From an uncultured Ilyobacter sp. (lineage in GTDB: Bacteria > Fusobacteriota > Fusobacteriia > Fusobacteriales > Fusobacteriaceae): a stretch of 64,000 nucleotides of DNA. A program made the translations under genes and the position numbers. The DNA lies in the NCBI GenBank assembly GCA_963668015.2, contig CAXXCR010000012.1:162892-226891 (forward strand), given 5' to 3'. A model generated the notes under the pieces. The model worked only from the letters and a program-made list of their open reading frames with translations. It was not told where the DNA came from and did no database searches. Below are positions 5,377 to 29,811 of this stretch, piece after piece (position 1 is the stretch's first letter; each line of letters begins with the position of its first letter).

Positions 5377-5398
5377 TTTGTGGAGTTGTTTTTTAGAT

Positions 5399-9515: not shown

Positions 9516-9525
9516 GAATTATTTC

Positions 9526-9554
9526 TTGACATATGGTCTTAAAAATGTTTTAAT
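9526..9554 (+). promoter_or_regulatory. Sigma70-like promoter P1 for the thrS-upstream leader unit
   Basis: TTGACA (9526-9531), 17-nt spacer, TTTAAT (9549-9554), with an extended -10 TG at 9546-9547. Confidence 0.5.
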
Positions 9555-9585
9555 TGGTGTAATCTTATTTAAGAGGAGAATTTAT

Positions 9586-9627
9586 ATGTTAGAACTTTTA
9601 ATCTCAACAACGGAAACCACAGACTAG
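9586..9627 (+). CDS. Candidate Thr-rich leader peptide (MLELLISTTETTD)
   Basis: GAGGAG RBS (9573-9578) lies 7 nt before ATG 9586. 13 codons, with 4 Thr codons at 9607-9612 and 9616-9621, stop TAG 9625-9627. Sits between promoter P1 and a strong terminator, upstream of thrS. Confidence 0.35.
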   Translation: MLELLISTTETTD

Positions 9628-9708
9628 GGTTTGTTCCTTTTTAGGTGCAAGCCCGCTGACAGTTTCAAGAGTTTGTGCCTTTGGTTGAGATTAAAGTTTT
9701 GTTGATTG

Positions 9709-9747
9709 AGGCCATTTGGGCGGTTCGCCTAAATGGCCTGTTTTGTT
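9709..9747 (+). terminator. Strong intrinsic terminator in the thrS upstream region
   Basis: 14-bp stem AGGCCATTTGGGCG (9709-9722) / CGCCTAAATGGCCT (9726-9739) with one G-T pair and loop GTT, followed by GTTTTGTT. Confidence 0.75.
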
Positions 9748-9765
9748 ATTCAGCCCTTTTAAAAC

Positions 9766-9794
9766 TTGAAAAAATAGTGGATATACTTTATAAT
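9766..9794 (+). promoter_or_regulatory. Sigma70-like promoter P2 proximal to thrS
   Basis: TTGAAA (9766-9771), 17-nt spacer, TATAAT (9789-9794). Lies downstream of the terminator and about 55 nt before the thrS start codon. Confidence 0.55.
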
Positions 9795-9848
9795 ATTCTA
9801 TATTTATAAATTGAAATGATTAAGAATTAGCATACATGAGGAGGAAAG

Positions 9849-11768
9849 ATGATTAAGGTAAGTTTGCCAAGTGGTGATGTTAAGCAATTTGAAAATGCGG
9901 TTAATATGTTTGAAATTGCAAAGAGTATAAGCAACTCCCTTGCGAAAAAAGCTCTTGCTGCAAAAGTGGACGGGGAAATGGTTGACATGAGATATATCCT
10001 AGACAAGGATGCAAGTGTTGAGATTATTACTACGGAAACAGAAGAAGGGGTTGAAGTTATAAGACACAGTGCCGCGCATTTGATGGCACAGGCAGTTATC
10101 AGGTTGTTTCCTGGAACTAAGGTAGCTATAGGTCCGTCAATAGAAAACGGTTTCTATTATGATTTTGATCCTAAAGAGCAGTTTGTAGAGGGAGACCTAG
10201 AGAAAATAGAAGCTGAGATGAAGAGAATAGTAAAAGAGGATATCAAAATAGAGAGAGTCGAGATGCCCAGAGAAGAGGCGATCAAGTATTTTGAGGATCT
10301 TGGGGAAGAGTATAAAGTTGAGATAATAAAAGAGATAGCAAAAGGTGAAATGCTGAGTTTTTACAAGCAGGGTGATTTTATAGATCTTTGTAGAGGGCCA
10401 CATGTGCCATCCACAAAGTATTTAAAAACATTTAAGTTGAGATCACTTGCAGGTGCTTACTGGAGGGGAAGCTCTGACAATAAAATGCTTCAAAGGATAT
10501 ACGGTTTTGCATTTGCAAGCGACAAGGAGCTAAAGACTCACCTGAAATTCCTTGAAGAGGCTGAAAAAAGAGACCATAGAAAACTTGGAAAAGAGCTTGA
10601 ACTGTTTTTCATGTCCGACTATGGACCGGGATTCCCGTTCTTTATGCCTAAGGGGATGGAGTTAAAAGATACACTGATGGATTTGTGGAAGAGAGAGCAT
10701 AAAAAAGCAGGGTACAGCATGATACAAACTCCCATAATGCTTAATAAAGAACTTTGGGAGACATCAGGGCATTGGTTCAATTATAGAGAGAACATGTACA
10801 CTTCGGAAATAGACGAAAATGAATTTGCAATAAAACCAATGAACTGTCCTGGAGGAATGTTGGCTTATAAAAACGGGCTTCATTCGTATAAAGATCTTCC
10901 TCTTAGAGTGGGAGAGTTCGGCCACGTTCATAGGCATGAGTTTTCAGGAGCCTTACATGGGTTGTTCAGAGTAAGATCATTTACTCAGGATGATACGCAT
11001 GTATTTATGACAAAAGACCAGATAGAAGATGAAGTAATCAGAATAATAGATCTGTATGATAAGTTTTATACATTGTTTGGTCTTAGCTACCAGATAGAGT
11101 TATCTACAAAGCCTGAAAAAGCTATAGGTTCTGACGAAATTTGGGAGATTTCCGAAATAGCCCTTGCAAATGCAGTAAAAAGATCTGGAAAAGATTATAA
11201 ACTTAATCCTGGGGACGGAGCGTTTTATGGACCTAAGTTAGACTTTAAATTAAAAGATGCTATTGGAAGAATATGGCAGTGTGGAACTATACAGCTTGAT
11301 ATGAATCTTCCTGAAAGATTTGACCTGTTCTATATAGGCGAAGACGGAGAAAAACATAGACCTGTAATGATACACAGAGCTATGTACGGAAGTATAGAAA
11401 GGTTTATGGGTATTCTTATAGAGCACTATGCCGGAGCTTTCCCTCTATGGCTTGCACCTACTCAAGTAAAAATACTTACTATAAACGACGACGTTGTTCC
11501 GTATGCAAAAGAGGTTGCTGAACTCTTGGAAGCTGAAGGTATAAGGGTAGAGATTGACAGCAGAGCCGAGAAGATAGGTTATAAAATAAGGGAAGCAAAC
11601 GGGAAATATAAAATACCTGTACAGCTTATAATTGGTAAGTCTGAAGTGGAAAACAAAGAGGTAAATGTAAGAAGGTTCGGATCAAAAGACCAGGCTACTC
11701 AAAATCTGGACGAGTTTATTGCTCAGATAAAAGAGGAAGCAAAAGTAAAATTTGACGGGGATAAGTAA
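9849..11768 (+). CDS. thrS: Threonine--tRNA ligase
   Basis: 639 aa. TGS N-terminus, editing-domain HSAAH motif, class II core (FRVRSFTQDDTHVF, GAFYGPKLDF), C-terminal anticodon-binding domain. GAGGAGG RBS. Confidence 0.97.
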   Translation: MIKVSLPSGDVKQFENAVNMFEIAKSISNSLAKKALAAKVDGEMVDMRYILDKDASVEIITTETEEGVEVIRHSAAHLMAQAVIRLFPGTKVAIGPSIENGFYYDFDPKEQFVEGDLEKIEAEMKRIVKEDIKIERVEMPREEAIKYFEDLGEEYKVEIIKEIAKGEMLSFYKQGDFIDLCRGPHVPSTKYLKTFKLRSLAGAYWRGSSDNKMLQRIYGFAFASDKELKTHLKFLEEAEKRDHRKLGKELELFFMSDYGPGFPFFMPKGMELKDTLMDLWKREHKKAGYSMIQTPIMLNKELWETSGHWFNYRENMYTSEIDENEFAIKPMNCPGGMLAYKNGLHSYKDLPLRVGEFGHVHRHEFSGALHGLFRVRSFTQDDTHVFMTKDQIEDEVIRIIDLYDKFYTLFGLSYQIELSTKPEKAIGSDEIWEISEIALANAVKRSGKDYKLNPGDGAFYGPKLDFKLKDAIGRIWQCGTIQLDMNLPERFDLFYIGEDGEKHRPVMIHRAMYGSIERFMGILIEHYAGAFPLWLAPTQVKILTINDDVVPYAKEVAELLEAEGIRVEIDSRAEKIGYKIREANGKYKIPVQLIIGKSEVENKEVNVRRFGSKDQATQNLDEFIAQIKEEAKVKFDGDK

Positions 11769-11783
11769 TAAAGCGAATAGAAG

Positions 11784-11819
11784 ATCGGAGGCGGATAAAT
11801 CCAGCCTTCGATTTTTTTA
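11784..11819 (+). terminator. Intrinsic terminator after thrS
   Basis: ATCGGAGGC / GCCTTCGAT stem (one G-T pair) followed by T7. Confidence 0.6.
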
Positions 11820-11882
11820 TCCTAAATTTATAAAGATCAGAAAAAATGGGCCTGAAAGCAGGTGTCTTTTATTTTCAAATGA

Positions 11883-11911
11883 TTGAAAAAACAGTATAGA
11901 TATGGTATAAT
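11883..11911 (+). promoter_or_regulatory. Sigma70-like promoter
   Basis: TTGAAA (11883-11888), 17-nt spacer, TATAAT (11906-11911), with TGG immediately upstream of the -10. Confidence 0.5.
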
Positions 11912-11968
11912 TTTTAAATTACGTAGTTTTTTAAGTAGGGATAAATATTAAGTGTAAAAGGTGGAGAA

Positions 11969-12358
11969 ATGAGAAACAGTGTTATTTTGAGAAGAGAGAA
12001 AAACATAGGAGATATAGGACTTATAGCTAAATGGGAAAATGACCTGGAATTAGGGTCATATTTTTTGCCAAAATATAGGGGAAACAGAGATTTTGAGGGT
12101 GTAGAAAAAATTGAAATAATAAAAAATATGGGGAAATACAGCAAAACCATCTATATGGTGGAATATGACGAAAAAACAATTGGGTACGCCAGTTATGATA
12201 CAGGATTAAACGCAGCTGATGAAGATGAAAAATCAGCCTGGGTAAATATAGTTTTGGGGGATAAAAGTTACCTGAACAAAGGGATAGAAGAGATAGTTGT
12301 CCTGGAAATAGAAAGAGAACTTGGACGTAGAGGGGTAAATAGGCTTGAGTTCAATTAA
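11969..12358 (+). CDS. GNAT-family N-acetyltransferase-like protein, apparently C-terminally short
   Basis: 129 aa. N-terminal RimJ/RimL-like pattern (ILRREKNIGDIGLIAKWENDLEL). Ends shortly after ...GRRGVNRLEFN, where GNATs usually continue through the last beta strands. Confidence 0.5.
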   Translation: MRNSVILRREKNIGDIGLIAKWENDLELGSYFLPKYRGNRDFEGVEKIEIIKNMGKYSKTIYMVEYDEKTIGYASYDTGLNAADEDEKSAWVNIVLGDKSYLNKGIEEIVVLEIERELGRRGVNRLEFN

Positions 12359-12487
12359 CGAAAAGAGTACTCTATATGTACTAAGTTTATATGTTATATA
12401 GTTTTATTTATAAAAAGAATGTTTTTAATGGATTTTTTTAGGAAATGTATAGACGAGAATGGGGAAAGATCTATAAAGGAGATAGGT

Positions 12488-13447
12488 ATGAACGATAAAT
12501 TTAAGGTGTACGTGGCTCCCATAGCCGGTGTGACCGATTATAGCTATAGAAGAATATTAAACGAATTTGACCCTGACCTGCTTTTTACAGAAATGGTGAG
12601 CGCCAATGCCGTTATGATGGCAAATGAAAAAACTGTAAACCAGCTTTTAAAACTGAATCCGGGTGATGGTGTGCAGATATTTGGAAGAGATATAGAGTAT
12701 ATGAAAGACAGTGCTAAGTTTGCCGAAAAAGCAGGCGCTAATCAGATCGACGTAAACCTGGGATGCCCAATGCCCAAAATAGTAAAAAACGGGTACGGGT
12801 CAGCGCTGTTGTCAGACCCAGAGCATGTAAGAAAGATGATGCATGAAATAAAGGGTGTTTTAAGTGATGACACAACCCTTTCTATGAAAATAAGGATAGG
12901 GTATAAGGAGCATAAAAATCCGCTGGAGATGGCAAAAATCGCAGAAGAACTTGGATTAAGCCATATAACTATACACGGAAGAACCAGGGAGCAGATGTAC
13001 AGTGGCAAGGCCAACTGGGAAGTTATAAAAGAGGTCAAAGAAAGCGTTTCCATACCGGTAATCGGGAACGGAGACATATTTACAGCTGCAGATGCCTTGG
13101 ACAAAGTAAAACTTTCAGGTGTAGACGGGGTTATGCTTGCCAGAGGGATGTTTGGAAACCCTTGGCTGGTAAAACAGACAAGGGAATTATTGGAAACTGG
13201 TGAGATCAAAACAGAGGTGACAGCCAACGATAAAATAGATACGGCAATAAAACACATTGAATATGTAATGGAAGATGTAAAAGAGAGGGAGTTTTACTTT
13301 GAGATAAGAAAGCACCTTTGTTGGTATATAAAAGGGCTTAAGCACTCAAGCCATGCAAAAAACCTGATAAACAGATCGCAGAATTACAAGGAACTTTTGG
13401 ATATTTTAGAGAAACTTAGAGAGATAAACACAAGAGACGAGGTGTAA
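12488..13447 (+). CDS. dusB: tRNA-dihydrouridine synthase
   Basis: Dus signature (VAPIAGVTDYSYR, IDVNLGCPMPK, ITIHGRTREQMYSG). ATG 12488 has an AAGGAG RBS. The ORF-track start at 12419 lacks one. Confidence 0.85.
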   Translation: MNDKFKVYVAPIAGVTDYSYRRILNEFDPDLLFTEMVSANAVMMANEKTVNQLLKLNPGDGVQIFGRDIEYMKDSAKFAEKAGANQIDVNLGCPMPKIVKNGYGSALLSDPEHVRKMMHEIKGVLSDDTTLSMKIRIGYKEHKNPLEMAKIAEELGLSHITIHGRTREQMYSGKANWEVIKEVKESVSIPVIGNGDIFTAADALDKVKLSGVDGVMLARGMFGNPWLVKQTRELLETGEIKTEVTANDKIDTAIKHIEYVMEDVKEREFYFEIRKHLCWYIKGLKHSSHAKNLINRSQNYKELLDILEKLREINTRDEV

Positions 13448-13453
13448 GAAATA

Positions 13454-16084
13454 ATGGCTAAAGAAACACCGCTTATGAAGCAGTATAAAGAAATAAAATC
13501 CCAGCACAAAGATTCCATCCTTTTTTTCAGGCTGGGTGACTTTTATGAGATGTTTTTTGAAGATGCGGTGATAAGCTCTAAAGAATTGGGGATAACTCTC
13601 ACTAGCAGAAATAAAGAGAAAGACCAAGAGGTACCGCTTGCAGGTATACCTTTTCATTCAGCTGCATCATATATAAGCAAGTTAGTGGCCAAGGGATATA
13701 AGGTGGCCATATGCGAACAGGTAGAAGACCCGAAAGAAGCCAAAGGTATCGTGAAAAGAGAGGTAGTAAAGATAATAACTCCGGGGACAGTTATAGACAC
13801 GGAATATCTGGATGAAAAGAGCAATAACTACCTTTTGGGGATAAAAATTTCAGACGAGTCAGCTGCACTTGCATATGTGGATATAACAACAGGTGAATTT
13901 AGAACCACTGAAGTTGTAGGCGAAAACCTGATATTTAAAGTCCTAAACGAGGTGCACAAGGTTGCTCCGAATGAAATAGTTTTAAATGAAGCCAATTACG
14001 AAAAATACAGTGCTGAGCTTGAAAATTACGCCTCTTTGAGCGAGGTGGTTATAAATAAAATCAGGGAGCCTAAAAATAGTGAAGAGCTGCTGAAGGAGTA
14101 TTTTGGGATTGTTTCTTTGGAAAGCTACGGCCTTTCTCATAAAGAACTTGTGGTTCAGGCCTGTGGGATGACTTTGAATTATGTTTTGGAGCTGCAAAAA
14201 TTTGCAGAACTGCCAATAGACAAAATATCCTATGACAGCAGGGAAGAGTATATGGAGCTTAACCTGACTACACAGAGAAACCTGGAGCTGATACAAAATC
14301 AAAATGAAAAGACCAGCCACGGAACGCTGCTTTGGGTTCTGGACAGGTGTAAGACATCTATGGGTACCAGACTTTTGAAAAGGATTATAAAAAGTCCGCT
14401 TCTAAACTCGGTTAAAATAAGAGAGAGACAGGAAGATATTGGCCATTTTATAGAAGAAGTATTGGTACGTGAAGAGGTAAAGGAAAAATTAAAAGAAGTA
14501 TACGACCTTGAAAGGCTTATGGGGAAAATAATACTTGGAACAGAGAATGCCAGAGATCTCATAGCTATGAAAAAATCAGTGAAGTCGGTACTTGAAATAA
14601 TAAAAGTCTTGGGTGAAAAACAGGTATTCCAAACGGATATAGAGAGACTTATATCCGTATACAATCTAATTGAAAAAGCTATCTGCGACGAACCTCCTTT
14701 TTCTGTTAGGGAAGGAAACATGATAAAGAGGGGATATAACGAGCACCTTGATGAACTTCATGAAATATCCAAATCTGGTAAGGACTACCTTTTGGCTATA
14801 GAGAGCAAGGAGAAGGAAAAAACAGGTATAAGGAACCTAAAGGTGAAGTACAATAAAGTTTTCGGGTATTTTCTGGAGGTTACGAAATCAAATGTACACC
14901 TTGTGCCAGATGACTATATAAGAAAACAGACACTTACAAATTCCGAAAGATATATAACATCGGAATTGAAAGAGTATGAATCCAAGATATTAAACGCTAA
15001 AGAGAAAATAGAAGCCTTGGAGTACGAACTTTTTAAGGAGATATCTGCTGAAATAAAAGAGTCAAAACTCCTTGTAAAGGAGCTTGCTTACGGGGTTTCC
15101 TACTTAGATGTAGTTATATCTCTGTCTGACGTGGCCACGAAAAATAACTATGTCTGCCCTGAGATAGGCGAGGGCTATGAACTTGAAATAAAAGATGCCA
15201 GACATCCAATAGTTGAAAAGCTCATAGGTGAGGAGGAGTTTGTTAAAAACGATATAAAACTGGATGAAAAAGAAAGGGTAGTAATACTGACAGGGCCGAA
15301 CATGGCCGGGAAATCTACTTATATGAAGCAGAACGCCCTTATAATACTTATGGCTCAAATAGGTTCATACGTGCCGGCATCATATGCCAAAATAGGTGTG
15401 GTGGACAAGATATTCACAAGGGTAGGGGCAAGTGATGACTTGGTCAGTGGGCAATCTACATTCATGGTTGAGATGAGCGAGGTAGCCAATATAGTCAACA
15501 ACTCAACTGAAAACTCATTTGTTATATTGGATGAAGTCGGGAGAGGAACATCTACTTTTGACGGGATATCCATAGCCAGCGCCATAACAGAGTACATACA
15601 CAACAAGATAGGAGCAAAAACAATATTTGCAACTCACTACCATGAGCTCACAGAGTTGGAAAATAAATATGACAAGGTAATAAACTTCAGAATAGAGGTA
15701 AAGGAAACCGAGGAAAGTGTAATATTTTTGAGGGAGATAGTCAGGGGCGGAGCAGACAAGTCCTACGGTATAGAGGTAGCCAGATTGGCTGGTCTGCCAA
15801 AAGAGATACTGAAAAAATCAAAGCAGACTCTGAAGATGCTGGAAGAAAAGCGGGCTATCATAGAGAAAAAAATCAAAGGGGAGCAGCTGCTGCTTTTTGG
15901 AGGGCAAAATATGGTGCCTGAGACAGAAGAGATAGAAGAGGTTGAAGAAGTAAAAGAGGTACTGAGCGAAGAGAAAAAAATAGTTTTGGAAGAAATAGAA
16001 GCTGTAGATCTCAACAACCTAACGCCGTTGGACGCACTTATAAAATTAAACGAACTCAAGAAAAAGTTGAGAGAGGAGATATAG
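13454..16084 (+). CDS. mutS: DNA mismatch repair protein MutS
   Basis: 876 aa. N-terminal mismatch-binding motif (FFRLGDFYEMFFEDA), Walker A GPNMAGKST, STFMVEM, DEVGRGTSTFDG. Confidence 0.97.
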   Translation: MAKETPLMKQYKEIKSQHKDSILFFRLGDFYEMFFEDAVISSKELGITLTSRNKEKDQEVPLAGIPFHSAASYISKLVAKGYKVAICEQVEDPKEAKGIVKREVVKIITPGTVIDTEYLDEKSNNYLLGIKISDESAALAYVDITTGEFRTTEVVGENLIFKVLNEVHKVAPNEIVLNEANYEKYSAELENYASLSEVVINKIREPKNSEELLKEYFGIVSLESYGLSHKELVVQACGMTLNYVLELQKFAELPIDKISYDSREEYMELNLTTQRNLELIQNQNEKTSHGTLLWVLDRCKTSMGTRLLKRIIKSPLLNSVKIRERQEDIGHFIEEVLVREEVKEKLKEVYDLERLMGKIILGTENARDLIAMKKSVKSVLEIIKVLGEKQVFQTDIERLISVYNLIEKAICDEPPFSVREGNMIKRGYNEHLDELHEISKSGKDYLLAIESKEKEKTGIRNLKVKYNKVFGYFLEVTKSNVHLVPDDYIRKQTLTNSERYITSELKEYESKILNAKEKIEALEYELFKEISAEIKESKLLVKELAYGVSYLDVVISLSDVATKNNYVCPEIGEGYELEIKDARHPIVEKLIGEEEFVKNDIKLDEKERVVILTGPNMAGKSTYMKQNALIILMAQIGSYVPASYAKIGVVDKIFTRVGASDDLVSGQSTFMVEMSEVANIVNNSTENSFVILDEVGRGTSTFDGISIASAITEYIHNKIGAKTIFATHYHELTELENKYDKVINFRIEVKETEESVIFLREIVRGGADKSYGIEVARLAGLPKEILKKSKQTLKMLEEKRAIIEKKIKGEQLLLFGGQNMVPETEEIEEVEEVKEVLSEEKKIVLEEIEAVDLNNLTPLDALIKLNELKKKLREEI

Positions 16085-16099
16085 AATTAGGGGGATGTT

Positions 16100-19000
16100 A
16101 TGCTGAAAAAAATTCTATACATATTGGGAGCTCTTTTATTTGCTTTGTTTATATACTTTAATTATTTTAAAGAGGATTCTCCTCTGAACTTTGATTTAAG
16201 CAATATAATAGAGACTAGGGGAGTGGTTTATAGGTCTAAAGACTATAAACTAAGAGCTGAAACACAGATCGATGATATTGAAAAGAAAGAAACTTCGTTT
16301 GAAAAAGCCAAAGCTATTTTCAAAAATATGAGCATAAGCTCTGATAGTGCAATGATAGATACCTTAAAAAACCTTGTTTTACATGGCAACATAGTCGGGG
16401 TTGGGAAAAACGGCTGGAATCTTAATGCTAACAAAGCCAGGTATTCTTCTACGTCTGAGAAACTTTATTCAGAAGGCGGTGTTCACGCATACAACGAGGA
16501 AAAGAAAATAGCTATATATGGGGACAAGTTTGAAAGTGACAAAAAAATGGAGGACATGATACTGTCCGGGAACATAAGAATGGAATCCCAGGGATTGAAG
16601 TTAAAGGGCGAGGAAGCTCACTACAACAACAGCACAGAGCTGCTGGAAATGGATGACGGCATAGAATTTTCTGCTGTTCAAGAAGATGGCGGCACTCCTG
16701 TGACCGGAAGTTTCGACGAATTAGAGTACGACGGAAAGAAAAAACTAGTCAGGGGCTGGGGGAATGTCGTTGCCAAGTACAACGGTATAGAGATGATGGC
16801 CGAGGAGTTTATATATTATGAAGACAGCGGCGACTTCGAACTATTGGAAAACCTGAAAGCTGTCGGTGATGACTTGGATTTGGGCTTGAAAAAGATATAC
16901 TATGACAGTTCAAAAAAAGAGATGCTGCTTTACGGGGAAATCAAAGGAAAAAGCGGTGAGTACAGTTTTTCTGCCGCAAACGGTGTGTACTATCTTGAAA
17001 GCAAGCTTTTGGTGCTGAATGGAAAAGTGTCTATACTGGGTGAAAAAGGTGACACAGTGAAAGCCGAACTTATTGAGTACAACACTGATAGCGGTGTTGC
17101 ACTGTTTTCGGCTCCCCAAAAAGGTGTCGTTGAGTATATATCTGGAAAAGAAAGACTCAGCAGCAAAAACTTTAGGTATAACTTAAAGAGTAAGGAGATA
17201 TCAACAGAGAGTAGCTACAGGTATTCAGGAGAAAAGTACAGTAGCACCGGTGACAGCATAAATTACAATACAGAGGGTAAAAAGGGCGTATTGAAGGGCG
17301 CCAGGATAGAAGATGGCAAAAACCTTTTAAGGGCATCAGAAGCCTATGTAGATTTTACAACGTCCAAACATGTATTGAGTGGGGATGTATTTGCCAGATA
17401 CGATGGATACGAGATACGTACTGAAAGAGCAGATATAGACGAAATAGAAGAATTGATAAGATTTGACAGGCAGTTCGAGCTGAAGCAACTGGAAAATGGG
17501 GTTAAACTTTCAGGAAGCGGAGGCTACTATTCGGCAAAGGATAAATTTGCAAAGATAAGCAAGGATGCCAGGGTTTCAAATACAGAATATACAATTAAAA
17601 GTAATAGAGCTGATTATGACCTGGAGAAGGGAGAAGCACAGTTTGTAGGGGATGTACAGGCTAAGGATGTAGAAAGGGGCTACATACTGAGGTCTGACTC
17701 GGGCAAGTACAAAAAAGATCAATATATAAGCTTAGACGGCGGTGTAGAAGCTGAGGTGGACGGATATAAAATATCATCTGATAGTGCAAAGTATGACAGC
17801 ATAGAAGAGCTTTTATACCTTCCGGGCAAAGTGAAATTTTCAGATAATGACATAAGTGGTGAAATGAACGAGGGATATTATGACTCTGAGAATAAAACTT
17901 TCAGTGGAAGAAATTTTTATGCAGTACCGCAGGGAAGGAAACTGAGCGGTGAAAATGGACGATACTATTCCCAGGGAAAAATTCTGGAGCTTTCTGGAAA
18001 CGTTCTTGTAAGAGATGGAGAAATGGAAGGCAGTGCACAAAGTTTAAGGTATTATAATGCCACTTCTTACGCAGTGGCCGATAAGGGAGTAGAGCTAAAT
18101 TATTCTGGCATAAGTATGGATTCACACTGGGCAGAGATAGATATGGAAGCTGGAAAAGCGCATGGAGGCGAAGTAGTTTTCCGTGACGTGAACGGACAAA
18201 ATATAAAAGGGAATAGGTATTCTGTGGACTTCAAGGATAATGTGCTGAAGCTAAGTGAAGATGTAAGCGGTACACTTGTACTTGAAAGTTCCCCTGAAAC
18301 CAGCTCGGATTCGGAAGAGCTTTATTTTAAGAGCGGGATTTTGAATTTGTTTCTAAAGAAAGAATCAGGTAAGTATACAGCTTATAAAAGCGAGCTCAGA
18401 AACAGTGTTGATTTAGACTATGGTGATCTTAGGCTGTCAGCACAGGAGTTGTTATTAAATCATATCAGCAGAGAAGCTGAAGCTAGAGGCGGATCAAAAT
18501 TAGAGTATGCAGGTGGAAATGAGATTTTATCTGATAACTTGAATTTGATCTCGGACAATCAGATTGCAGTGGCTGACGGGAATGTAAGTGTAAAAAGTGT
18601 TTCGGAAGAAGCTGGGGAAGTCTACATAAAATCGGATAAGGCTAAGTACGACAATCTCAACAAGAAAGCTGAGTTTACAGGAAATGTGGTTCTGGAAAAA
18701 GGCGGTACCACAATGTGGGCTGATGAGACTTACTATGATTTGAAAAAGGAACAGGTCAAAGGTAAGGGGAATGTTTTTGTAGAACATCTGAGCGATGTTG
18801 AAAGTGAAAAGAAAAAAGAGGAAGCGAAAAAGGCTGTACTCTTATCAAAAATTAAATCAGCTATGCTTGATGTGCAGGTACAGGAGTTTGTAGGAAACGA
18901 CAAAGCTAAAATTGAGTTGACACCTGCTTGGAATAATGTGAATATTCAGTGGGAATCCAGTGATGCTAAGATTTTGAGTGGGGAAGGGAAGGTAAGACAC

Positions 19001-19375
19001 CCAAAATACACTGAAGGCGATGCTGTTGTTAAGCTCACAGGGACCTTTACGTCTGAAAATATGAGCAGAAAAAAAGACTATTATATAAGCGTAGAAAAAG
19101 AGTCTAAAAAAGAGTATTTGAAAAGGGAACTTTCTGCAATAAACATAGGGAGCTATCCTATAGGAGCTACTTCGGTTAATCTTCCCGAAAAGTTTGGAAG
19201 AATTAAAGTTGAATGGGAATCCTTAGGAAGCTTTATAGATTCTACAGGGAAAATTGTGGCAAAACTAAAGAATGGGCCGGTTTTAAAAGGGGCATTTAAT
19301 TTCGAAGATCAGCTTGTTGAAAAGACTTTTTCTGCACTTATTGGAAGCAGAGAGTTTAAGTTGGTTTCCAAATAA
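16100..19375 (+). CDS. Membrane-anchored LptC-like / tandem LptA(OstA)-like repeat protein with C-terminal Ig-like module
   Basis: 1091 aa with one N-terminal TM helix. Recurrent OstA/LptA-type motifs, e.g. IKSDKAKYDNLNKKAEFTGNVVLEKGGTTMWADETYYD and IKSNRADYDLEKGEAQFVGDV. Lies 21 nt upstream of lptB. Confidence 0.65.
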   Translation: MLKKILYILGALLFALFIYFNYFKEDSPLNFDLSNIIETRGVVYRSKDYKLRAETQIDDIEKKETSFEKAKAIFKNMSISSDSAMIDTLKNLVLHGNIVGVGKNGWNLNANKARYSSTSEKLYSEGGVHAYNEEKKIAIYGDKFESDKKMEDMILSGNIRMESQGLKLKGEEAHYNNSTELLEMDDGIEFSAVQEDGGTPVTGSFDELEYDGKKKLVRGWGNVVAKYNGIEMMAEEFIYYEDSGDFELLENLKAVGDDLDLGLKKIYYDSSKKEMLLYGEIKGKSGEYSFSAANGVYYLESKLLVLNGKVSILGEKGDTVKAELIEYNTDSGVALFSAPQKGVVEYISGKERLSSKNFRYNLKSKEISTESSYRYSGEKYSSTGDSINYNTEGKKGVLKGARIEDGKNLLRASEAYVDFTTSKHVLSGDVFARYDGYEIRTERADIDEIEELIRFDRQFELKQLENGVKLSGSGGYYSAKDKFAKISKDARVSNTEYTIKSNRADYDLEKGEAQFVGDVQAKDVERGYILRSDSGKYKKDQYISLDGGVEAEVDGYKISSDSAKYDSIEELLYLPGKVKFSDNDISGEMNEGYYDSENKTFSGRNFYAVPQGRKLSGENGRYYSQGKILELSGNVLVRDGEMEGSAQSLRYYNATSYAVADKGVELNYSGISMDSHWAEIDMEAGKAHGGEVVFRDVNGQNIKGNRYSVDFKDNVLKLSEDVSGTLVLESSPETSSDSEELYFKSGILNLFLKKESGKYTAYKSELRNSVDLDYGDLRLSAQELLLNHISREAEARGGSKLEYAGGNEILSDNLNLISDNQIAVADGNVSVKSVSEEAGEVYIKSDKAKYDNLNKKAEFTGNVVLEKGGTTMWADETYYDLKKEQVKGKGNVFVEHLSDVESEKKKEEAKKAVLLSKIKSAMLDVQVQEFVGNDKAKIELTPAWNNVNIQWESSDAKILSGEGKVRHPKYTEGDAVVKLTGTFTSENMSRKKDYYISVEKESKKEYLKRELSAINIGSYPIGATSVNLPEKFGRIKVEWESLGSFIDSTGKIVAKLKNGPVLKGAFNFEDQLVEKTFSALIGSREFKLVSK

Positions 19376-19396
19376 AATTCAGAAGGAGTTAAACTT

Positions 19397-20122
19397 ATGA
19401 AATCAATTATAGCCAAGGACCTATGCAAGTCATACAAAAAAAGAAGAGTAGTAGACGGTGTAAGTCTTGAGGTAAACAAGGGAGAAATAGTGGGACTTCT
19501 GGGGCCAAACGGAGCAGGTAAGACAACTACTTTTTACATGATAACAGGGATAGTAAAACCGGAAACCGGTAGTGTATTTTTAAACGAAGTAGATATAACC
19601 GGCTACCCAATGTACAAGAGAGCCAGGCTGGGCATAGGGTATCTGGCGCAGGAACCGTCGGTGTTTAGAAATCTGAGTGTGGAGGAGAATATACTTTCCA
19701 TCCTCGAGATGAGGAATATAGAAAAAAAAGAGAGAAAAGAGAGTATGGAGCAGCTCCTGGAGGAGTTTAAGCTCACACATGTAGCAAAATCACTTGGGTA
19801 TGCACTTTCTGGAGGAGAGAGAAGAAGAGTGGAAATAGCGAGAACTATAGCAAATAATCCGGATTTTATTCTTTTGGATGAGCCTTTTGCAGGGGTGGAC
19901 CCTATAGCTGTGGAGGATATACAGAATATTGTAAGGTATCTGAAACAGAAAGGTCTGGGGATACTTATAACCGACCACAGCGTAAGAGAAACATTGAGCA
20001 TAACAGAAAGGGCGTACATAATGGCCGAAGGGAAGGTCCTTATAAGCGGTACCCCTGAAGAAATTTCAAATGACGATACAGCAAGAAGAATATACCTCGG
20101 CCAGGGGTTCAAATTGGACTAA
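19397..20122 (+). CDS. lptB: LPS export ABC transporter ATP-binding protein LptB
   Basis: 241 aa. Walker [10 protein letters not shown], signature [13 protein letters not shown], Walker [13 protein letters not shown], and an LptB-type C-terminus (RIYLGQGF). Confidence 0.93.
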
Positions 20123-20161
20123 AAGCTATGTTCTCTTGTAGTACTATCAAAATAAATTAAT

Positions 20162-20190
20162 TTGACAATTAATTTTAAATCTTATATTAT
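20162..20190 (+). promoter_or_regulatory. Sigma70-like promoter for alaS
   Basis: TTGACA (20162-20167), 17-nt spacer, TATTAT (20185-20190). Confidence 0.55.
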
Positions 20191-20226
20191 ATCTTTGGAA
20201 AATAGGCTTTTAGGAAGGAGAACAAA

Positions 20227-22833
20227 ATGCTTTCAGGAAACGAAATAAGAAGCAAGTTTATAGAATTTTTTAAAGAAAAAGAACACAAGCACTATGAGAG
20301 TGCATCACTTATACCGGATGACCCCACTCTGCTTTTGACAGTGGCAGGGATGGTACCGTTTAAACCATTCTTTTTAGGACAAAAAGAAGCACCTAACAAG
20401 AGGGTAACAACATATCAAAAATGTATAAGAACAAACGATTTAGAAAACGTGGGCAGAACTGCAAGACACCACACTTTTTTTGAGATGCTGGGGAACTTTT
20501 CTTTTGGTGATTACTTCAAAGAGGAGTCTATAAAATGGTCGTGGGAGTTCGTGACAGAGGTTTTGAAACTGGATAAAAGCAAACTTTGGATTTCCGTATA
20601 CAACGATGACGATGAAAGTGAAAAAATATGGATTGAAAAAATAGGAGTACCAAAAGACAGAGTGGTAAGACTTGGAGAGGACGACAACTGGTGGTCTGCA
20701 GGTCCAGTTGGATCGTGCGGGCCATGTTCTGAGATACACTATGATCAGGGAGAAACTTTTGGATGCGGTCCTGAATGTAAACTTGGGTGTGAATGCGACA
20801 GCGACAGATACTTAGAAATATGGAACCTTGTATTTACAGAGTGGAACAGGCTAGAGGATGGTTCTCTTGCCCCGCTTCCTAAGAAAAATATAGATACTGG
20901 TGCTGGACTTGAAAGAATAGCAGCAATTGCACAAGGAAAAGAAAACAACTTTGAAACAGACCTTCTTTTCCCAATACTTGAAGCAGCTGCAAAAGAATGC
21001 GGTGTAAAATATAAGACTGATGACGAGAAAGATTTCTCTCTAAAGGTTATAACAGATCATGCCAGAGCAATAAGCTTTTTAATCAACGACGGGGTTCTTC
21101 CTTCGAATGAGGGGAGAGGGTACGTACTTAGAAGAATACTTAGAAGAGCTGCAAGACATGGAAGACTTTTGGGGAAACAAGAAATTTTCCTTTACAAACT
21201 GGTGGATTTTGTAGTAGATATAATGGGAGGGGCTTATCCTGACTTAATCGACAACAAAGAGCACATACAGAAAGTTATAAGAATAGAGGAAGAAAAATTC
21301 TCGCACACACTTGACCAAGGAATACAAATGGTTAACGGTGAAATAAAAAAACTTAAAGCTGAAGGTAAAGAAAAGCTGGATGCAGAGACTGTCTTTAAAC
21401 TTTATGATACATACGGATTCCCTTATGAGTTGACTGAAGAGATCTGTGATGAGCACTCTGTAAAAATAAACTTTGACGAGTTCAAAGAAAAGATGGAGGA
21501 GCAAAAAGAGAGAGCCAGAAATGCAAGGGAAGTAGTAAAAGAAAAAGGTCAGGACAAATTCATAGAAGAGTTCTACGACAAATACGGAAAATCTGTGTTC
21601 GATGGGTATGAAAACTTTGAAATAGATGGGACTGTCTACCATGCAAAAGAACTTTCAGACGGGAAATTCATGGTAATATTTGACAGAACACCTTTTTACG
21701 CTGAATCCGGTGGACAGGCAGCAGATCATGGGACTATAAGCGGAGATGGGATAAAAGGTAAGGTAGTTGGAGTTCAAAAACAAAAAGAGATATACCTGCA
21801 CACGGTGAAAATAGAAGAGGGGGCTGAAAACCTGAAAAAAGGCGTTAAGCTGCACCTTGCTGTGGACAAGTATAGAAGAAACCAGATAAAAAGAAACCAT
21901 ACTGCAACTCACCTTCTACACAAGGCGTTAAAAGAAGTAGTTGGATCTCATGTACAGCAGGCTGGGTCATTGGTTGATGAAGACAGGCTTAGATTTGACT
22001 TTACACACTACGAGGCTGTTACAAGAGATCAGCTTGAAAAAGTAGAAGAGATAGTAAACAGGGTTGTATTCGAAAACCTTGAACTGGATGTAAACCTTAT
22101 GGAAATAGATCAAGCCAAAGAAAAAGGGGCAACTGCTCTTTTCGGCGACAAGTATGGAGACCTGGTAAGGGTTGTAGATGTACCTGGATTCTCTATGGAA
22201 CTTTGCGGGGGAACACATGTTGATAGAACAGGCGAAATAGGTCTTTTCAATATATTGACTGAAACTGGTATAGCAGCTGGTACTAGAAGAATAGAGGCAA
22301 CCACTGGATACATGAGTTTTAAAGTTGTGAACCAGATGGAAAGAATGCTACTTAGTGTGTCGGACACATTAAAAACTGATATAGGACATCTTGAGGAAAA
22401 AGCTGAAAAGCTTATGGAAGAGCTTAAAGAGACACAAAAAGAGCTTGAAAAATCAAAGTCTAAAATGGCCAACTATGAGGCAAACCAGCTATTTGACAAT
22501 GTGGAAGATATAAACGGAGTCAAGGTACTGGTGAAAGCATTCAAGGATAAGGAAGCTGGGTCACTTAGAGAGATAGTGGACAAGGCAAAGGATAAACTTG
22601 GATCATGTGTGGTGATACTCGGTACCGACAACGGCAAGGCTGTATTCTCTGTAGGGGTGACAAAGGACCTTATAGGAAAAGTAAAGGCTGGTGACCTGGT
22701 AAGAGAGATAGCCAAGATGGCTGGTGGAAACGGTGGAGGAAGACCGGACTTCGCCCAGGCAGGCGGGAAAGACGGTTCTAAAGTTTCAGAAGCTGTTGCA
22801 TTTGGAAAACAACTGTTAAATGATAAATTATAA
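20227..22833 (+). CDS. alaS: Alanine--tRNA ligase
   Basis: 868 aa. Class II AlaRS motifs (FFEMLGNFSFGDYFK, WSAGPVGSCGPCSEIHYD), editing-domain HxxxH (NHTATHLLH), C-terminal DHHA1-like domain. Confidence 0.97.
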   Translation: MLSGNEIRSKFIEFFKEKEHKHYESASLIPDDPTLLLTVAGMVPFKPFFLGQKEAPNKRVTTYQKCIRTNDLENVGRTARHHTFFEMLGNFSFGDYFKEESIKWSWEFVTEVLKLDKSKLWISVYNDDDESEKIWIEKIGVPKDRVVRLGEDDNWWSAGPVGSCGPCSEIHYDQGETFGCGPECKLGCECDSDRYLEIWNLVFTEWNRLEDGSLAPLPKKNIDTGAGLERIAAIAQGKENNFETDLLFPILEAAAKECGVKYKTDDEKDFSLKVITDHARAISFLINDGVLPSNEGRGYVLRRILRRAARHGRLLGKQEIFLYKLVDFVVDIMGGAYPDLIDNKEHIQKVIRIEEEKFSHTLDQGIQMVNGEIKKLKAEGKEKLDAETVFKLYDTYGFPYELTEEICDEHSVKINFDEFKEKMEEQKERARNAREVVKEKGQDKFIEEFYDKYGKSVFDGYENFEIDGTVYHAKELSDGKFMVIFDRTPFYAESGGQAADHGTISGDGIKGKVVGVQKQKEIYLHTVKIEEGAENLKKGVKLHLAVDKYRRNQIKRNHTATHLLHKALKEVVGSHVQQAGSLVDEDRLRFDFTHYEAVTRDQLEKVEEIVNRVVFENLELDVNLMEIDQAKEKGATALFGDKYGDLVRVVDVPGFSMELCGGTHVDRTGEIGLFNILTETGIAAGTRRIEATTGYMSFKVVNQMERMLLSVSDTLKTDIGHLEEKAEKLMEELKETQKELEKSKSKMANYEANQLFDNVEDINGVKVLVKAFKDKEAGSLREIVDKAKDKLGSCVVILGTDNGKAVFSVGVTKDLIGKVKAGDLVREIAKMAGGNGGGRPDFAQAGGKDGSKVSEAVAFGKQLLNDKL

Positions 22834-22884
22834 AGTAAGGGTGAGTTATGCTCACTTCTTGCTTTTTATTCGGGAGAAAATAAG

Positions 22885-23307
22885 ATGAAGAAATATCTGG
22901 CTCTGGATATAGGCGATGTGCGTATAGGAGTGGCAAAATCAGACATAATGGGGATGTTTGCGTCTCCGCTTGAAGTTATTGATAGAAGAAAAACAAAGGC
23001 AGTGAAACGTATAAAAGAGATCTGTGTAGTTGAGAACACAAAGAATATAGTAGTTGGGATCCCTAAAAGTCTGGATGGAACCGAAAAAAGACAGGCTGAA
23101 AAAGTAAGGGAATTCTTGGGAAAACTAGAAAAAGAGATAAAAGGTTTGAACATAATAGAAGTTGATGAAAGATTTTCAACTGTTTCTGCAGACCGGATGC
23201 TAAATGAAATGACTAAAAAAGATGCAAAACAGAAAAGAAAGGTTGTAGACAAGGTAGCTGCAACAATTATTCTGCAGACCTACCTTGATATGAATAGTAG
23301 AAAATAA
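22885..23307 (+). CDS. ruvX: Holliday-junction resolvase-like protein RuvX/YqgF
   Basis: 140 aa. LALDIGDVRIGVA N-terminus and DERFSTVSA motif typical of YqgF. Confidence 0.9.
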   Translation: MKKYLALDIGDVRIGVAKSDIMGMFASPLEVIDRRKTKAVKRIKEICVVENTKNIVVGIPKSLDGTEKRQAEKVREFLGKLEKEIKGLNIIEVDERFSTVSADRMLNEMTKKDAKQKRKVVDKVAATIILQTYLDMNSRK

Positions 23308-23339
23308 AAAGAGTTTTTAACTCAACGGGGGAGGACATC

Positions 23340-24560
23340 ATGAGAAAATCACTAGTTATTAAACTTGTACTAATCCTTATTGTCTTGTGTGGCGCTGCAT
23401 GGCTCAGTTTTGTAAAGCCTACAAAATTAGGTCTTGACCTAAAAGGTGGAGTTTATGTTGTTCTTGAGGCAAAGTCTGAAGAGGGGGAAGTAATCGACAA
23501 TTCCGCAATGGAAAGGCTTACAGAAGTGCTGGATAGAAGAATAAACGGTCTCGGTGTAGCAGAGTCTGTTGTGCAAAGATCAGGTGAGAAAAGGGTAATT
23601 ATCGAACTTCCTGGAGTAAAAGATACCGAGGAAGCGATAAAACTTATCGGTAAAACTGCACTTTTGGAATTCAAACTGGTAAATGAAGATGAAAGTCTTG
23701 GAGAAACACTTTTAACAGGTAAAGACCTGGTGAAAGCCGACGTAACATATGATAATTTAGGAAGGCCTCAGATTGCATTTGAATTAAATGCAGAGGGGGC
23801 AAAACTGTTTGCGGAAATAACTAGAAAAAATATAGGTAAAAAATTAGCAATTACACTGGATGGAGAGATTCAAACAGCTCCGGTGATAAACACTGAGATA
23901 CCTGGAGGAGCGGGTGTGATAACAGGAAACTACACTGTAGAGGAAGCAAAGGCTACAGCTACACTTTTAAATGCAGGGGCCTTACCTGTAAAAGCAGAAA
24001 TACTTGAAACTCGTGCAGTAGGTGCTTCATTAGGAGACGTTTCTATAGCTAAGAGTAAAAAAGCTGCTATAATTGCAGTAATGCTAATAACTGTATTTAT
24101 GGTTTTATGGTACAGAATTCCAGGATTAGTTGCAGATTTGGCTCTTTTTAGTTTTGGACTGCTGGCTTTTGGAACTTTGAACTTCTTAGATGCTACATTG
24201 ACATTGCCAGGTATAGCGGGACTTATACTTTCACTTGGAATGGCAGTAGATGCCAACGTAATCATATTTGAAAGAATAAAAGAGGAACTTAGATACGGAA
24301 ATACCATATTATCTTCTATAGAAAGCGGCTTCAAAAAAGCCTTCACGGCTATTTTCGACTCGAACCTGACTACCCTTATAATAACATTTATACTATTTAC
24401 AATGGGTACAGGTCCTGTAAAAGGGTTCGCCATAACATTAACGATAGGTATATTTGCTTCGATGTTTACGGCTATAACATTTACCAGAATTTTACTTAAA
24501 GGTTTCGTAATTCTATTTAAAATTGAGAAGCCTGAACTATTTGGTGTTAGGGGGAACTAA
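23340..24560 (+). CDS. secD: Protein translocase subunit SecD
   Basis: 406 aa. LGLDLKGGV motif, periplasmic domain, then six C-terminal TM segments. Confidence 0.93.
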   Translation: MRKSLVIKLVLILIVLCGAAWLSFVKPTKLGLDLKGGVYVVLEAKSEEGEVIDNSAMERLTEVLDRRINGLGVAESVVQRSGEKRVIIELPGVKDTEEAIKLIGKTALLEFKLVNEDESLGETLLTGKDLVKADVTYDNLGRPQIAFELNAEGAKLFAEITRKNIGKKLAITLDGEIQTAPVINTEIPGGAGVITGNYTVEEAKATATLLNAGALPVKAEILETRAVGASLGDVSIAKSKKAAIIAVMLITVFMVLWYRIPGLVADLALFSFGLLAFGTLNFLDATLTLPGIAGLILSLGMAVDANVIIFERIKEELRYGNTILSSIESGFKKAFTAIFDSNLTTLIITFILFTMGTGPVKGFAITLTIGIFASMFTAITFTRILLKGFVILFKIEKPELFGVRGN

Positions 24561-24563
24561 AAA

Positions 24564-25448
24564 GTGAAAATAGATCTTATAAAAAATACAAAAATTTGGC
24601 TTGGAATTTCGGGCATACTAATAGCAGTGGCGTTATTCGGTTTAATATTTAAGGGGCTTAATTATGGAATCGACTTTACCGGAGGAAATCTTTTTCAATT
24701 GAAATTTGAAAAAGAGGTAACTTTGGACACTTTGAATCCGGTATTGGACGATATAGCTAAAGATATAGAGCAACTTGACTCTAGAAGCAGAAAGGTTCAA
24801 ATTTCAGACGGTAATGTCGCAATAATAAGAACTCCTGAGATGTCCGAGGATGAGAAAACTAAGTTTTTGAGTCAGCTTGAATCGCATTCTAAATACGAGC
24901 TTCAAAAGAGTGAGAAAGTTGGAGCTTCAATCGGTTCCGAGCTTAAAAGAACAGCTGTATATGCACTAATAATAGGTGGATTATTGATAGTTTTATACAT
25001 AACTCTTAGATTTGAATTTAAGTTTGCACTTGCTGCTATAATCGCTCTGTTTCACGATATAATTATAGCAGTTGGTTTTATGGCAATTTTAGGATATGAA
25101 CTGAATACACCTTTTATTGCCGCTGTTTTAACTATACTAGGTTACTCTATAAACGATACTATAGTTGTGTTCGACAGGATAAGGGAGAATTTGAAAAGGA
25201 AAAATATAGGTTCGCTGGCAGAATCTATAAATATAAGCATAACTCAAGTTATGACTAGGTCAATAAATACATCTTTGACGACATTTTTGGCGGTTATAGC
25301 TATACTGATTTTCGGAGGAGATTCACTTAAAACTTTTATAACAACACTTTTAATAGGGGTTGTTGTAGGAACGTACTCTTCTATATTTGTTGCTAGTCCA
25401 GTTGTAAATATTTTAGAAAAGAAAGAAAAAGTAACGGAGGTTCAATAA
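24564..25448 (+). CDS. secF: Protein translocase subunit SecF
   Basis: 294 aa with GTG start. GIDFTGG motif, and YSINDTIVVFDRIREN typical of SecF. Confidence 0.93.
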   Translation: MKIDLIKNTKIWLGISGILIAVALFGLIFKGLNYGIDFTGGNLFQLKFEKEVTLDTLNPVLDDIAKDIEQLDSRSRKVQISDGNVAIIRTPEMSEDEKTKFLSQLESHSKYELQKSEKVGASIGSELKRTAVYALIIGGLLIVLYITLRFEFKFALAAIIALFHDIIIAVGFMAILGYELNTPFIAAVLTILGYSINDTIVVFDRIRENLKRKNIGSLAESINISITQVMTRSINTSLTTFLAVIAILIFGGDSLKTFITTLLIGVVVGTYSSIFVASPVVNILEKKEKVTEVQ

Positions 25449-25654
25449 TGAGATATACCAGTGAAAGAATTGGAAAAAATGCGGGTGAAATATGGGAATC
25501 TTTAAGTATTACGTCTAACCAAACTCTTTCATCGCTTGAAAAGACTACAGGATTAAAAAAGGAAGACTTGCTTCTTGCGATAGGTTGGCTTATGAAAGAA
25601 GACAAACTTGTGTCTGAAAAGTTTGGCAAGTCAATAAAATTTACATTAAAGTAG
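25448..25654 (+). CDS. Small winged-helix protein (DUF2582-like)
   Basis: 68 aa. IGKNAGEIWESL...LLLAIGWLMKEDKL pattern. Its ATG shares one nucleotide with the secF TAA stop. Confidence 0.6.
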   Translation: MRYTSERIGKNAGEIWESLSITSNQTLSSLEKTTGLKKEDLLLAIGWLMKEDKLVSEKFGKSIKFTLK

Positions 25655-25657
25655 AAT

Positions 25658-25690
25658 ATATTCCCTTGCCTTTTGGCAAGGGAATATTTC
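25658..25690 (+). terminator. Hairpin terminator after the secDF-wHTH unit
   Basis: 13-bp perfect stem ATATTCCCTTGCC / GGCAAGGGAATAT with TTTT loop. The trailing T-tract is short. Confidence 0.6.
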
Positions 25691-25909
25691 AATACAAGAA
25701 AATTTTTAATAAAAATTTCTTTGTAAGTTATTGATTTTATCATATTTTCTTTTACAAAAAATAAAGAAAGCCTTTATAAAATCAATAATTTGCTAAGAAG
25801 GCTAGCTTATTAGATAAAATAAATAAAAAACAGGTGGTCTAGCTAAGATGCATAGAATTTGCGGATAAATAAAAGTAGGCCGGGGATCAAATTAAAAGGG
25901 GAATATTGA

Positions 25910-27085: not shown

Positions 27086-27106
27086 AATAAAAAACAGGTG
27101 ATAGAG

Positions 27107-27643
27107 ATGTATTTGGATATTTGTTTACTAACAATAGTGTTTATATCTGTATTTTTGGGTTATAAAAAAGGTGTTTTACTTGAAATTTTTTCTTTTGTAG
27201 GGGTTATAGTGGCAGTACTTGCAACAAAAACTTTGACTCCAAAAATAATAAAGTTTTTTAAAGTGACAGTGGATAGAGAGGATAAATTTAATTATATACT
27301 TTTGTATTTTATAGTTTTTTGTATCCTTTATTTATTGATCATTATATGTACCTCTATTTTGAAAAAAATCAGTCAGGGAGGAATTTTAAGGTCTGTAGAC
27401 CAGCTAATCGGTGGGATTGTAGGTCTTTTAAAAGGGCTTATAATTGCATTGGTATTCTTGGTACTTGTTATATTTTTTAGCAAGTACAGCAAAAAAGTTG
27501 ATGAATTTGGTAAAAAGTCCTACTCTAAAAAGTATTTTTTGGAGTATTCGTCAAAGTTCGAAGGGGTTTTACCAAAAGAGATTAAAAATATGCTTGAGGA
27601 TTTCAAATATGAAGGAAGAATTGAAAAGTATTTAGAGGAGTAA
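27107..27643 (+). CDS. CvpA-family membrane protein
   Basis: About 178 aa with four TM segments. N-terminus DICLLTIVFISVFLGYKKG is typical of CvpA. ATG 27107 is preferred over GTG 27098 on RBS spacing. Confidence 0.7.
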   Translation: MYLDICLLTIVFISVFLGYKKGVLLEIFSFVGVIVAVLATKTLTPKIIKFFKVTVDREDKFNYILLYFIVFCILYLLIIICTSILKKISQGGILRSVDQLIGGIVGLLKGLIIALVFLVLVIFFSKYSKKVDEFGKKSYSKKYFLEYSSKFEGVLPKEIKNMLEDFKYEGRIEKYLEE

Positions 27644-27645
27644 TA

Positions 27646-29787: not shown

Positions 29788-29811
29788 AAATACATTTTGA
29801 AGGAGTAAACT

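Follow-up and report, generated by a model that had tools for sequence, protein, structure and literature searches.

A giant LptC/LptA-like protein encoded next to lptB in Fusobacteriota: a candidate one-chain bridge for lipopolysaccharide export

In E. coli, the periplasmic part of the lipopolysaccharide (LPS) export system is built from separate proteins that associate non-covalently: LptC, a bitopic protein of 191 aa, and LptA, a periplasmic protein of 185 aa. The copy number of LptA in the native bridge is still called uncertain (PMC6164715). Here we describe a gene in a stretch of 64,000 nucleotides from an uncultured Ilyobacter sp. (contig CAXXCR010000012.1; the whole stretch is called the window, and all features given below lie on its + strand). 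The gene occupies 16100..19375, including the stop codon, and codes for a giant LptC/LptA-like protein of 1091 aa. As in E. coli LptC, an N-terminal transmembrane (TM) helix is followed by a jellyroll of the OstA type; the gene is located directly upstream of lptB, and the bridge presumably follows the same head-to-tail logic. Unlike the E. coli proteins, however, it is one chain that amounts to about 6.6 LptA-equivalents and is not divided into domains, it carries an additional tail of the aBig_2 (atrophied bacterial Ig) type, and no signal-peptide-bearing free LptA is found at the locus. The interpretation that we favor, and on balance hold to be probable, is that this gene encodes the whole periplasmic conduit of fusobacterial LPS export as one polypeptide, i.e. 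a covalent LptC plus LptA bridge from LptB2FG to LptD.

An engineered E. coli LptC-LptA fusion shows that joining the two proteins is workable: it associates stably with LptB2FG and sustains ATP-dependent transfer of LPS to LptD in vitro (PMC12065857). LptC and LptA are covalently joined in both cases. Yet the engineered protein is artificial and contains two units, whereas the fusobacterial protein is natural, conserved across the phylum, and comprises about 6.6 units without a visible seam. An Lpt bridge of a non-proteobacterial diderm has also been analysed by modelling in Borrelia burgdorferi (PMC10353723). In contrast to the protein described here, BbLptC, BbLptA and BbLptD are separate, and this organism makes no LPS.

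More than one Lpt jellyroll-equivalent per chain is also present in three proteins from other lineages: P0166 (662 aa), P0015 (608 aa) and P0167 (489 aa). P0166 (L014 8001-9989) has an N-terminal TM segment and matches LptC and LptD_N; its gene lies just upstream of one that encodes an ATP-binding cassette (ABC) ATPase and takes the place of lptB, followed by rpoN-hpf-ptsN. P0015 (L015 8001-9827) is an OstA_2 protein, and its gene adjoins those of an LptD_2 protein and an MlaD protein. All three are much shorter than the giant protein, with a query coverage of 5-10%. P0166 further differs by its low-complexity linkers, P0015 and P0167 by their signal-peptide-like N-termini and OstA_2-type units. 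Because such intermediates exist, the fusion of jellyrolls as such is not unique; what stands out is the scale of 6-7 units together with the phylum-wide conservation. TamB and YhdP are likewise very long single chains, in which an N-terminal inner-membrane helix is followed by a continuous hydrophobic beta-groove that crosses the periplasm to an outer-membrane partner. The likeness to these AsmA-like proteins is one of function and architecture, by analogy only. They are not homologous: no AsmA/TamB/DUF490-type profile in Pfam matched the giant protein at E <= 10. Unlike TamB and YhdP, the giant protein has the Lpt fold and Lpt gene neighbours, and its presumed cargo is LPS, with transport driven by an ABC transporter. 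A full-text literature search returned no paper describing a giant fusobacterial LptC or its size.

By profile search, the giant protein belongs to the OstA clan. Scanned as a whole against Pfam, it matched LptC (PF06835, E 7.5e-26, 91.2 bits) and LptD_N (PF03968, 1.6e-25, 90.0 bits) in 7 stretches each, and OstA_2 (PF13100, 2.8e-11, 43.7 bits); the gathering cutoffs of these families are about 21 bits. Pieces taken along aa ~40-915 and scanned separately each matched the clan, with best scores of 33.9 bits for LptD_N, 33.5 for LptC and 27.6 for OstA_2. A preliminary description of this DNA, made by eye, had seen recurring OstA/LptA-type sequence along the protein and had named searches with LptC and OstA/LptA hidden Markov models (HMMs) as the check. 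This recurrence is far beyond chance in the Pfam, NCBIfam, single-piece and profile self-alignment results, and the TM segment and the four example peptides that were quoted are all present in the translation.

The internal repeats are visible to profile methods. Plain self-BLAST found none, and phmmer matched no chain among the PDB sequences, the identity being too low. In contrast, when the family alignment was compared with itself by hhalign, off-diagonal matches with E-values of 1e-45 to 1e-7 were obtained over aa ~20-900. Judging from the sequence, the repeats are thus ancient and very diverged.

With the NCBIfam equivalog models, TIGR04409 (LptC) scored 107.2 bits (6.4e-31; cutoff 38) as the sum of 7 partial matches, and TIGR03002 (LptA) 77.7 bits (7.6e-22; cutoff 71.7) as the sum over 5 stretches. 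The LptC model fits best at the N-terminal unit (aa 46-161 against model positions 54-178 of 180), the LptA model at the C-terminal unit (aa 835-887). Alone, the N-terminal unit reached 26.8 bits with TIGR04409, which is under the cutoff of 38. The NF008143 model for LptA gave 15 bits against a cutoff of 234.

The structure was predicted with AlphaFold2 from the 37-sequence family alignment (mean predicted local distance difference test, pLDDT, 87.4; predicted template modelling score, pTM, 0.51). The model begins with a helix at residues 2-23, in agreement with the single N-terminal TM helix of the preliminary description, and a linker of low confidence (24-34). This TM signal-anchor (aa 1-23; 16100..16168) ends in a family-conserved GYFNYF-type motif. 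From residue 36 to 896 (16205..18787) follows a continuous Lpt-type beta-jellyroll of 73 consecutive DSSP strands without linker or domain break, with pLDDT mostly 85-95; Foldseek, the Pfam pieces, the self-profile and the autocorrelation described below agree with this. Its head (aa 36-161; 16205..16582) is LptC-like, being the best TIGR04409 stretch and the best-conserved part of the protein. Its C-terminal edge (aa 841-896; 18620..18787) is conserved, resembles the N-terminal part of LptA (LptD_N model positions 1-77, TIGR03002 positions 4-60) and ends in K-G-N-V-F-V.

Solved Lpt structures superpose on this model. In Foldseek, the LptA chains 2r1a/2r19 aligned over 114-134 columns with TMt 0.75-0.85 and a root-mean-square deviation of 1.4-2.6 A; LptC (3my2/4b54) gave TMt 0.75-0.77, LptH (4uu4) 0.76, and LptD chains in the PDB matched at E 1e-10 to 1e-7. 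The model thus has the jellyroll of the OstA clan, a twisted pair of sheets made of consecutive antiparallel strands, and the expected reading of an LptC-like anchor that runs continuously into several LptA-equivalents directly upstream of lptB is borne out by profiles, AlphaFold2 and Foldseek alike. In its topology (N-terminal TM helix, then a jellyroll with strands from residue 36) and its gene context next to lptB, the protein corresponds to LptC. In size it does not, since LptC has one jellyroll and about 190 aa and the jellyroll here has 861 aa. Nor does it correspond to LptA, which is soluble, ~160-185 aa long and made with a signal peptide that can be cleaved off; here, LptA-like units occur inside an anchored chain.

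One LptA chain covers about 125-135 residues of the model, so that about 6.6 LptA units correspond to the 861-aa core. The roughly six to eight units counted by eye were therefore about right in number, and 7 Pfam stretches agree; the idea of discrete tandem units did not hold up, as the roll is seamless. Its profile autocorrelation has a main period of 29 aa; smaller peaks lie at 7, 14-16 and 22, and the period recurs as multiples at 57-58 and 86. We take the 29-aa period to be a beta-hairpin of two ~14.5-aa rungs, which would give about 30 hairpins and about 59 rungs. On this reading, ~59 rungs of 4.8 A would make the jellyroll about 28 nm long if straight. Alternatively, 6.6 units of 42-55 A each, the values for single Borrelia jellyrolls (PMC10353723), would give an estimated 28-36 nm. 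A shorter estimate of ~18 nm, in which a DSSP strand counted as half a rung, was dropped: LptA spans ~125-135 residues and the hairpin 29 aa, so that each long strand is a full rung. The periplasm is about 10 nm wide in E. coli (PMC6164715) and about 16 nm in B. burgdorferi, where LptC, LptA and LptD's N-terminal domain sum to about 15 nm (PMC10353723). Hence the earlier supposition that the extended protein could exceed a typical periplasm is reasonable by estimate (28-36 versus 10-16 nm), though the straightness of the roll is assumed in it. For F. nucleatum, cryo-electron tomography (cryo-ET) data have been published, with no periplasm width in the text of the paper (PMC12397386), and our literature search found no figure for a fusobacterial periplasm.

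The giant protein also occurs outside this genome, and its relatives already carry a name from the NCBI pipeline. An exhaustive search of 1.84 billion representatives gave 436 matches. In about 45 representatives, 862-1125 aa long, the alignment runs from residue 1 to about 896, and every family member with a named source belongs to the Fusobacteriota (Cetobacterium, Psychrilyobacter atlanticus, Propionigenium maris, and metagenome-assembled genomes (MAGs) of Fusobacteriaceae/Fusobacteriales). Most are named 'LPS export ABC transporter periplasmic protein LptC', some 'OstA-like protein' or 'LptA', and one 'S-layer protein'. The survey of domain architecture across Fusobacteriota that had been suggested shows a conserved layout, with LptC and LptD_N both matched in 37 of 37 aligned homologues and the synteny kept in 12 loci. 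These loci come from a genome scan with a 4-sequence alignment, which found 13 related loci in Ilyobacter, Cetobacterium and Fusobacterium. The order dus-mutS-gene-lptB-alaS is present in 12 of the 13; the remaining locus is cut off within the gene by the end of its contig. In all 12 loci that extend past the giant gene, lptB is adjacent to it and no lptA lies next to lptB. The run to lptF-lptG keeps the same downstream position in Ilyobacter and Cetobacterium.

Whereas the neighbours are well conserved, the giant protein evolves fast. Its identity to the Ilyobacter protein is 59%, compared with 86-94% for MutS, LptB and AlaS, and its identity to the Cetobacterium/Fusobacterium proteins is about 25%, compared with 76-81% for LptB. 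Pairs of family members have a median identity of 25%. Conservation peaks at aa 1-160 (anchor and LptC-like head), is lowest in the middle of the roll and rises again at aa 861-900. Likewise, identity to the Ilyobacter protein falls from 77-80% at the N-terminus to 54% in the middle, climbs back to 73% at aa 841-896 and is 50% in the tail; the divergence between the two proteins is mostly in the jellyroll middle and the tail. K3, K4, Y19, Y22 and G890 are near-invariant in the 37 homologues, and the N-terminal segment measures 34-35 aa in most members. Over the 37 aligned members, the core measures 856 +/- 19 aa and is almost gap-free.

Such a tightly kept length at a median identity of about 25% is what one would expect of a ruler. 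The protein could therefore mainly be a spacer or tether that holds the distance between inner and outer membrane, or a carrier of cargo other than LPS (lipoproteins, other lipids). The fast-evolving middle of the chain would be compatible with this, the aBig_2 tail could bind envelope components, and lipoprotein transport has been proposed for Lpt systems, among them the Lpt-like one of LPS-free Borrelia (PMC10353723; PMC11784454). We nevertheless regard this alternative as improbable, given the tight and conserved linkage to lptB and lptF/lptG and a fold that is the lipid-A-binding jellyroll. Moreover, Fusobacteria make LPS and need a conduit for it, and no other one is seen at the locus. 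The roles of ruler and conduit are also compatible with each other.

Shorter complete variants occur naturally (680, 741, 744, 748, 776, 802 and 808 aa) and have the same N-terminal anchor motif. Five of them, which lack an aBig_2 tail, end in the G-N-V/G-K-V strand motif of the family C-terminus. Aligned to the family HMM, all seven keep both ends, and only internal stretches are missing. As far as these alignments go, the jellyroll therefore seems to behave like two conserved docking ends with a spacer of variable length between them.

A possible mechanism for a one-chain LPS bridge is as follows. The TM helix and the first jellyroll unit would act as LptC and dock on LptB2FG; lptB is the next gene, and lptF and lptG follow 8 kb downstream. 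The remaining chain, about 5-6 further LptA-equivalents of seamless jellyroll, would replace the non-covalent LptA oligomer and provide a single long lipid-A-binding groove, about 28 nm in length if straight. At the outer membrane, strand pairing would join the conserved C-terminal edge to LptD at its N-terminal jellyroll. LptB2FG would extract LPS at the expense of ATP and so push it through the groove, in line with the 'PEZ' model for E. coli. Bridge length would be set genetically: lineages would gain or lose jellyroll segments in the interior and retain the docking end on either side. In the lineage studied here, the C-terminal helix and the two aBig_2 domains would hang from the outer-membrane end, where they may have an accessory binding role close to the outer membrane or the peptidoglycan. 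Tentatively, a broader statement is possible as well, although we would not yet bet on it: in Fusobacteriota at large, the whole LPS bridge could be one covalent, genetically length-encoded chain that needs no free LptA, measures ~28 nm in most lineages and less in those with internal deletions, and whose length tracks or even sets the spacing of the membranes.

Several points weigh against a one-chain bridge. The best single piece reached 31.2 bits against the cutoff of 38 for the LptC equivalog and 33.6 against 71.7 for the LptA equivalog. No single unit attains its cutoff; the scores above threshold result from adding up partial matches. The 37 members were picked for full-length alignment, so the statistic on core length is biased. 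The straightness of the roll and the continuity of its groove are assumed from a model with a pTM of only 0.51. The estimated ~28 nm exceeds the widths given for the periplasm in the Lpt literature (10-16 nm), and for this reason a simple bridge perpendicular to the membranes may not fit. The ~195 extra residues behind the C-terminal edge could interfere with end-on docking. No recognisable LptD was found in the 64-kb window with Pfam and NCBIfam. Finally, only this window was checked, and a stand-alone LptA or LptC may be encoded elsewhere in the genome.

The last point leads to another explanation, namely that the protein is an extended LptC that does not reach LptD, the bridge being completed by one or more free LptA proteins encoded elsewhere. 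LptC is indeed both the best equivalog and the NCBI name, the genome coverage of the check is 64 kb, and the shorter natural variants imply that full length is not obligatory. In E. coli, the jellyroll modules are interchangeable, and suppressor mutations in LptF are reported to bypass LptC and to give a six-protein bridge (PMC9972910). On the other hand, the chain already contains ~6.6 LptA-equivalents, and its ~28 nm compare with ~15 nm for the sum of LptC, LptA and LptD-N in Borrelia. At its C-terminal unit, the match is to the N-terminal part of the LptA and LptD_N models and the conservation is like that of a docking edge, and lptA is missing next to lptB in the 12 loci mentioned above. 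We thus consider an additional free LptA unlikely, although less so than a mere spacer. Within the window, the preliminary observation that no separate lptA or lptC is visible beside lptB was confirmed: the family HMM, run against all window ORFs, found no other significant OstA-like open reading frame (ORF) beside lptB and one weak candidate elsewhere.

This sole other match is the ORF at 6135..9515 (1126 aa); a weak similarity to the C-terminal LptA-like unit covers its residues 30-107 (domain i-E 3e-4, whole-sequence E 0.14). The N-terminus of its product resembles a signal peptide, and the remainder is rich in D, E and Y. A homologue in an Ilyobacter MAG is 72% identical and located at the same place upstream of thrS (L016:3-2258); the neighbours are not LPS-related genes. 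From these sequence features the ORF may be a candidate for a very divergent LptD, but attempts to confirm it failed or were not significant. It had no match in Pfam or NCBIfam, no sequence or profile match in the PDB and no relatives in the metagenome scans. With hhalign, the match to the family profile was weak (E 0.01-0.07), and BLAST against an approximate E. coli LptD sequence was not significant. Single-sequence AlphaFold2 gave an unusable model (pLDDT 30).

The last ~195 residues of the giant protein are not OstA-like. The preliminary description, which read LptC and LptA/OstA units only, left unnoted that they form a helix and two Ig-like domains of the aBig_2 type. Behind a hinge of low confidence (897-902), AlphaFold2 predicts an alpha-helix at aa 901-924 (18800..18871). 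The first aBig_2 domain follows at aa ~930-1000 (18887..19099); PF20578 matches aa 944-1000 (1.3e-11, 44.6 bits against a gathering cutoff of 27), and the predicted strands agree. The second, divergent aBig_2-like beta domain (aa ~1015-1091; 19142..19372) is indicated by predicted strands at 1018-1090 and by database alignments over aa 933-1078; scanned alone, it matched nothing in Pfam. The tail is present in 6 of the 37 full-length homologues, which fall into one cluster with four tail-less members in a crude UPGMA (unweighted pair group method with arithmetic mean) tree. In the exhaustive search it also matched many very large multi-repeat proteins, e.g. P0018 with 6385 aa and 35 matched stretches, and P0014, which in addition carries SLH domains.

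Taken together with the label 'S-layer protein' on one homologue, these matches could suggest a protein of the surface or S-layer type that has no part in LPS transport. We rejected the label, which stems from the aBig_2 tail, a part found in just 6 of 37 members. The giant protein itself has no SLH domain in Pfam, its N-terminus looks like an uncleaved signal anchor and is conserved as such across the family, about 80% of the chain is Lpt jellyroll, and the gene is locked to lptB. A surface protein is therefore very hard to reconcile with the data and by far the least probable of the explanations considered.

If the giant protein is indeed a one-chain bridge, it would be a natural molecular ruler and a counterpart of fixed stoichiometry to the E. 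coli bridge, since a fixed number of jellyroll rungs would define the stoichiometry. Annotation simply as 'LptC' would hide the fused function of LptC and LptA. The shorter natural variants would constitute a built-in length series that bears on the relation of bridge length to periplasm width, and a bridge in one chain would be a target for cryo-electron microscopy or cryo-ET of the whole bridge. Thanatin-type peptides inhibit where LptC meets LptA, LptA meets LptA and LptA meets LptD. A fused chain would leave such inhibitors the end interfaces only, and Fusobacterium is a medically important genus.

The gene context of the giant protein is compact. The reading frame starts with ATG, and the intervals had been given correctly: mutS ends at 16084, i.e. 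15 nt before the gene, and lptB starts 21 nt behind it. Shine-Dalgarno-like sequences precede both the giant gene (GGGGGA) and lptB. The identity of lptB (19397..20122), the ATPase of the LPS exporter, is unambiguous from its sequence (TIGR04406, 2.6e-111, full length). Two permease genes lie 8 kb downstream of the giant gene, an lptF-like one at 27646..28722 (TIGR04407, 8.2e-55) and an lptG-like one at 28723..29787 (TIGR04408, 1.9e-65); both match over the full length of the models, with scores below the curated cutoffs. The inner-membrane Lpt components thereby form one co-oriented block of ~13 kb interleaved with housekeeping genes, and the order giant gene, lptB, alaS, ruvX, secD, secF, rRNA methyltransferase gene, CvpA-like gene, lptF, lptG (lptB to lptG at 19397..29787 in the window) is shared between Ilyobacter and Cetobacterium.

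By consensus matching only, there is no terminator-like site between mutS, the giant gene and lptB, and the only strong promoter-like site in this region is ahead of alaS. Terminator-like hairpins are more frequent in 12000..23500 of the window than in shuffled sequence (16 versus 6.5 +/- 2.9), the majority of them inside coding regions. Exact-sequence database lookups of the window proteins matched no record. Over the whole window (1..64000), the GC skew is positive in all 2-kb bins and the + strand carries nearly all long ORFs, which fits a leading-strand segment without a replication origin or terminus inside.

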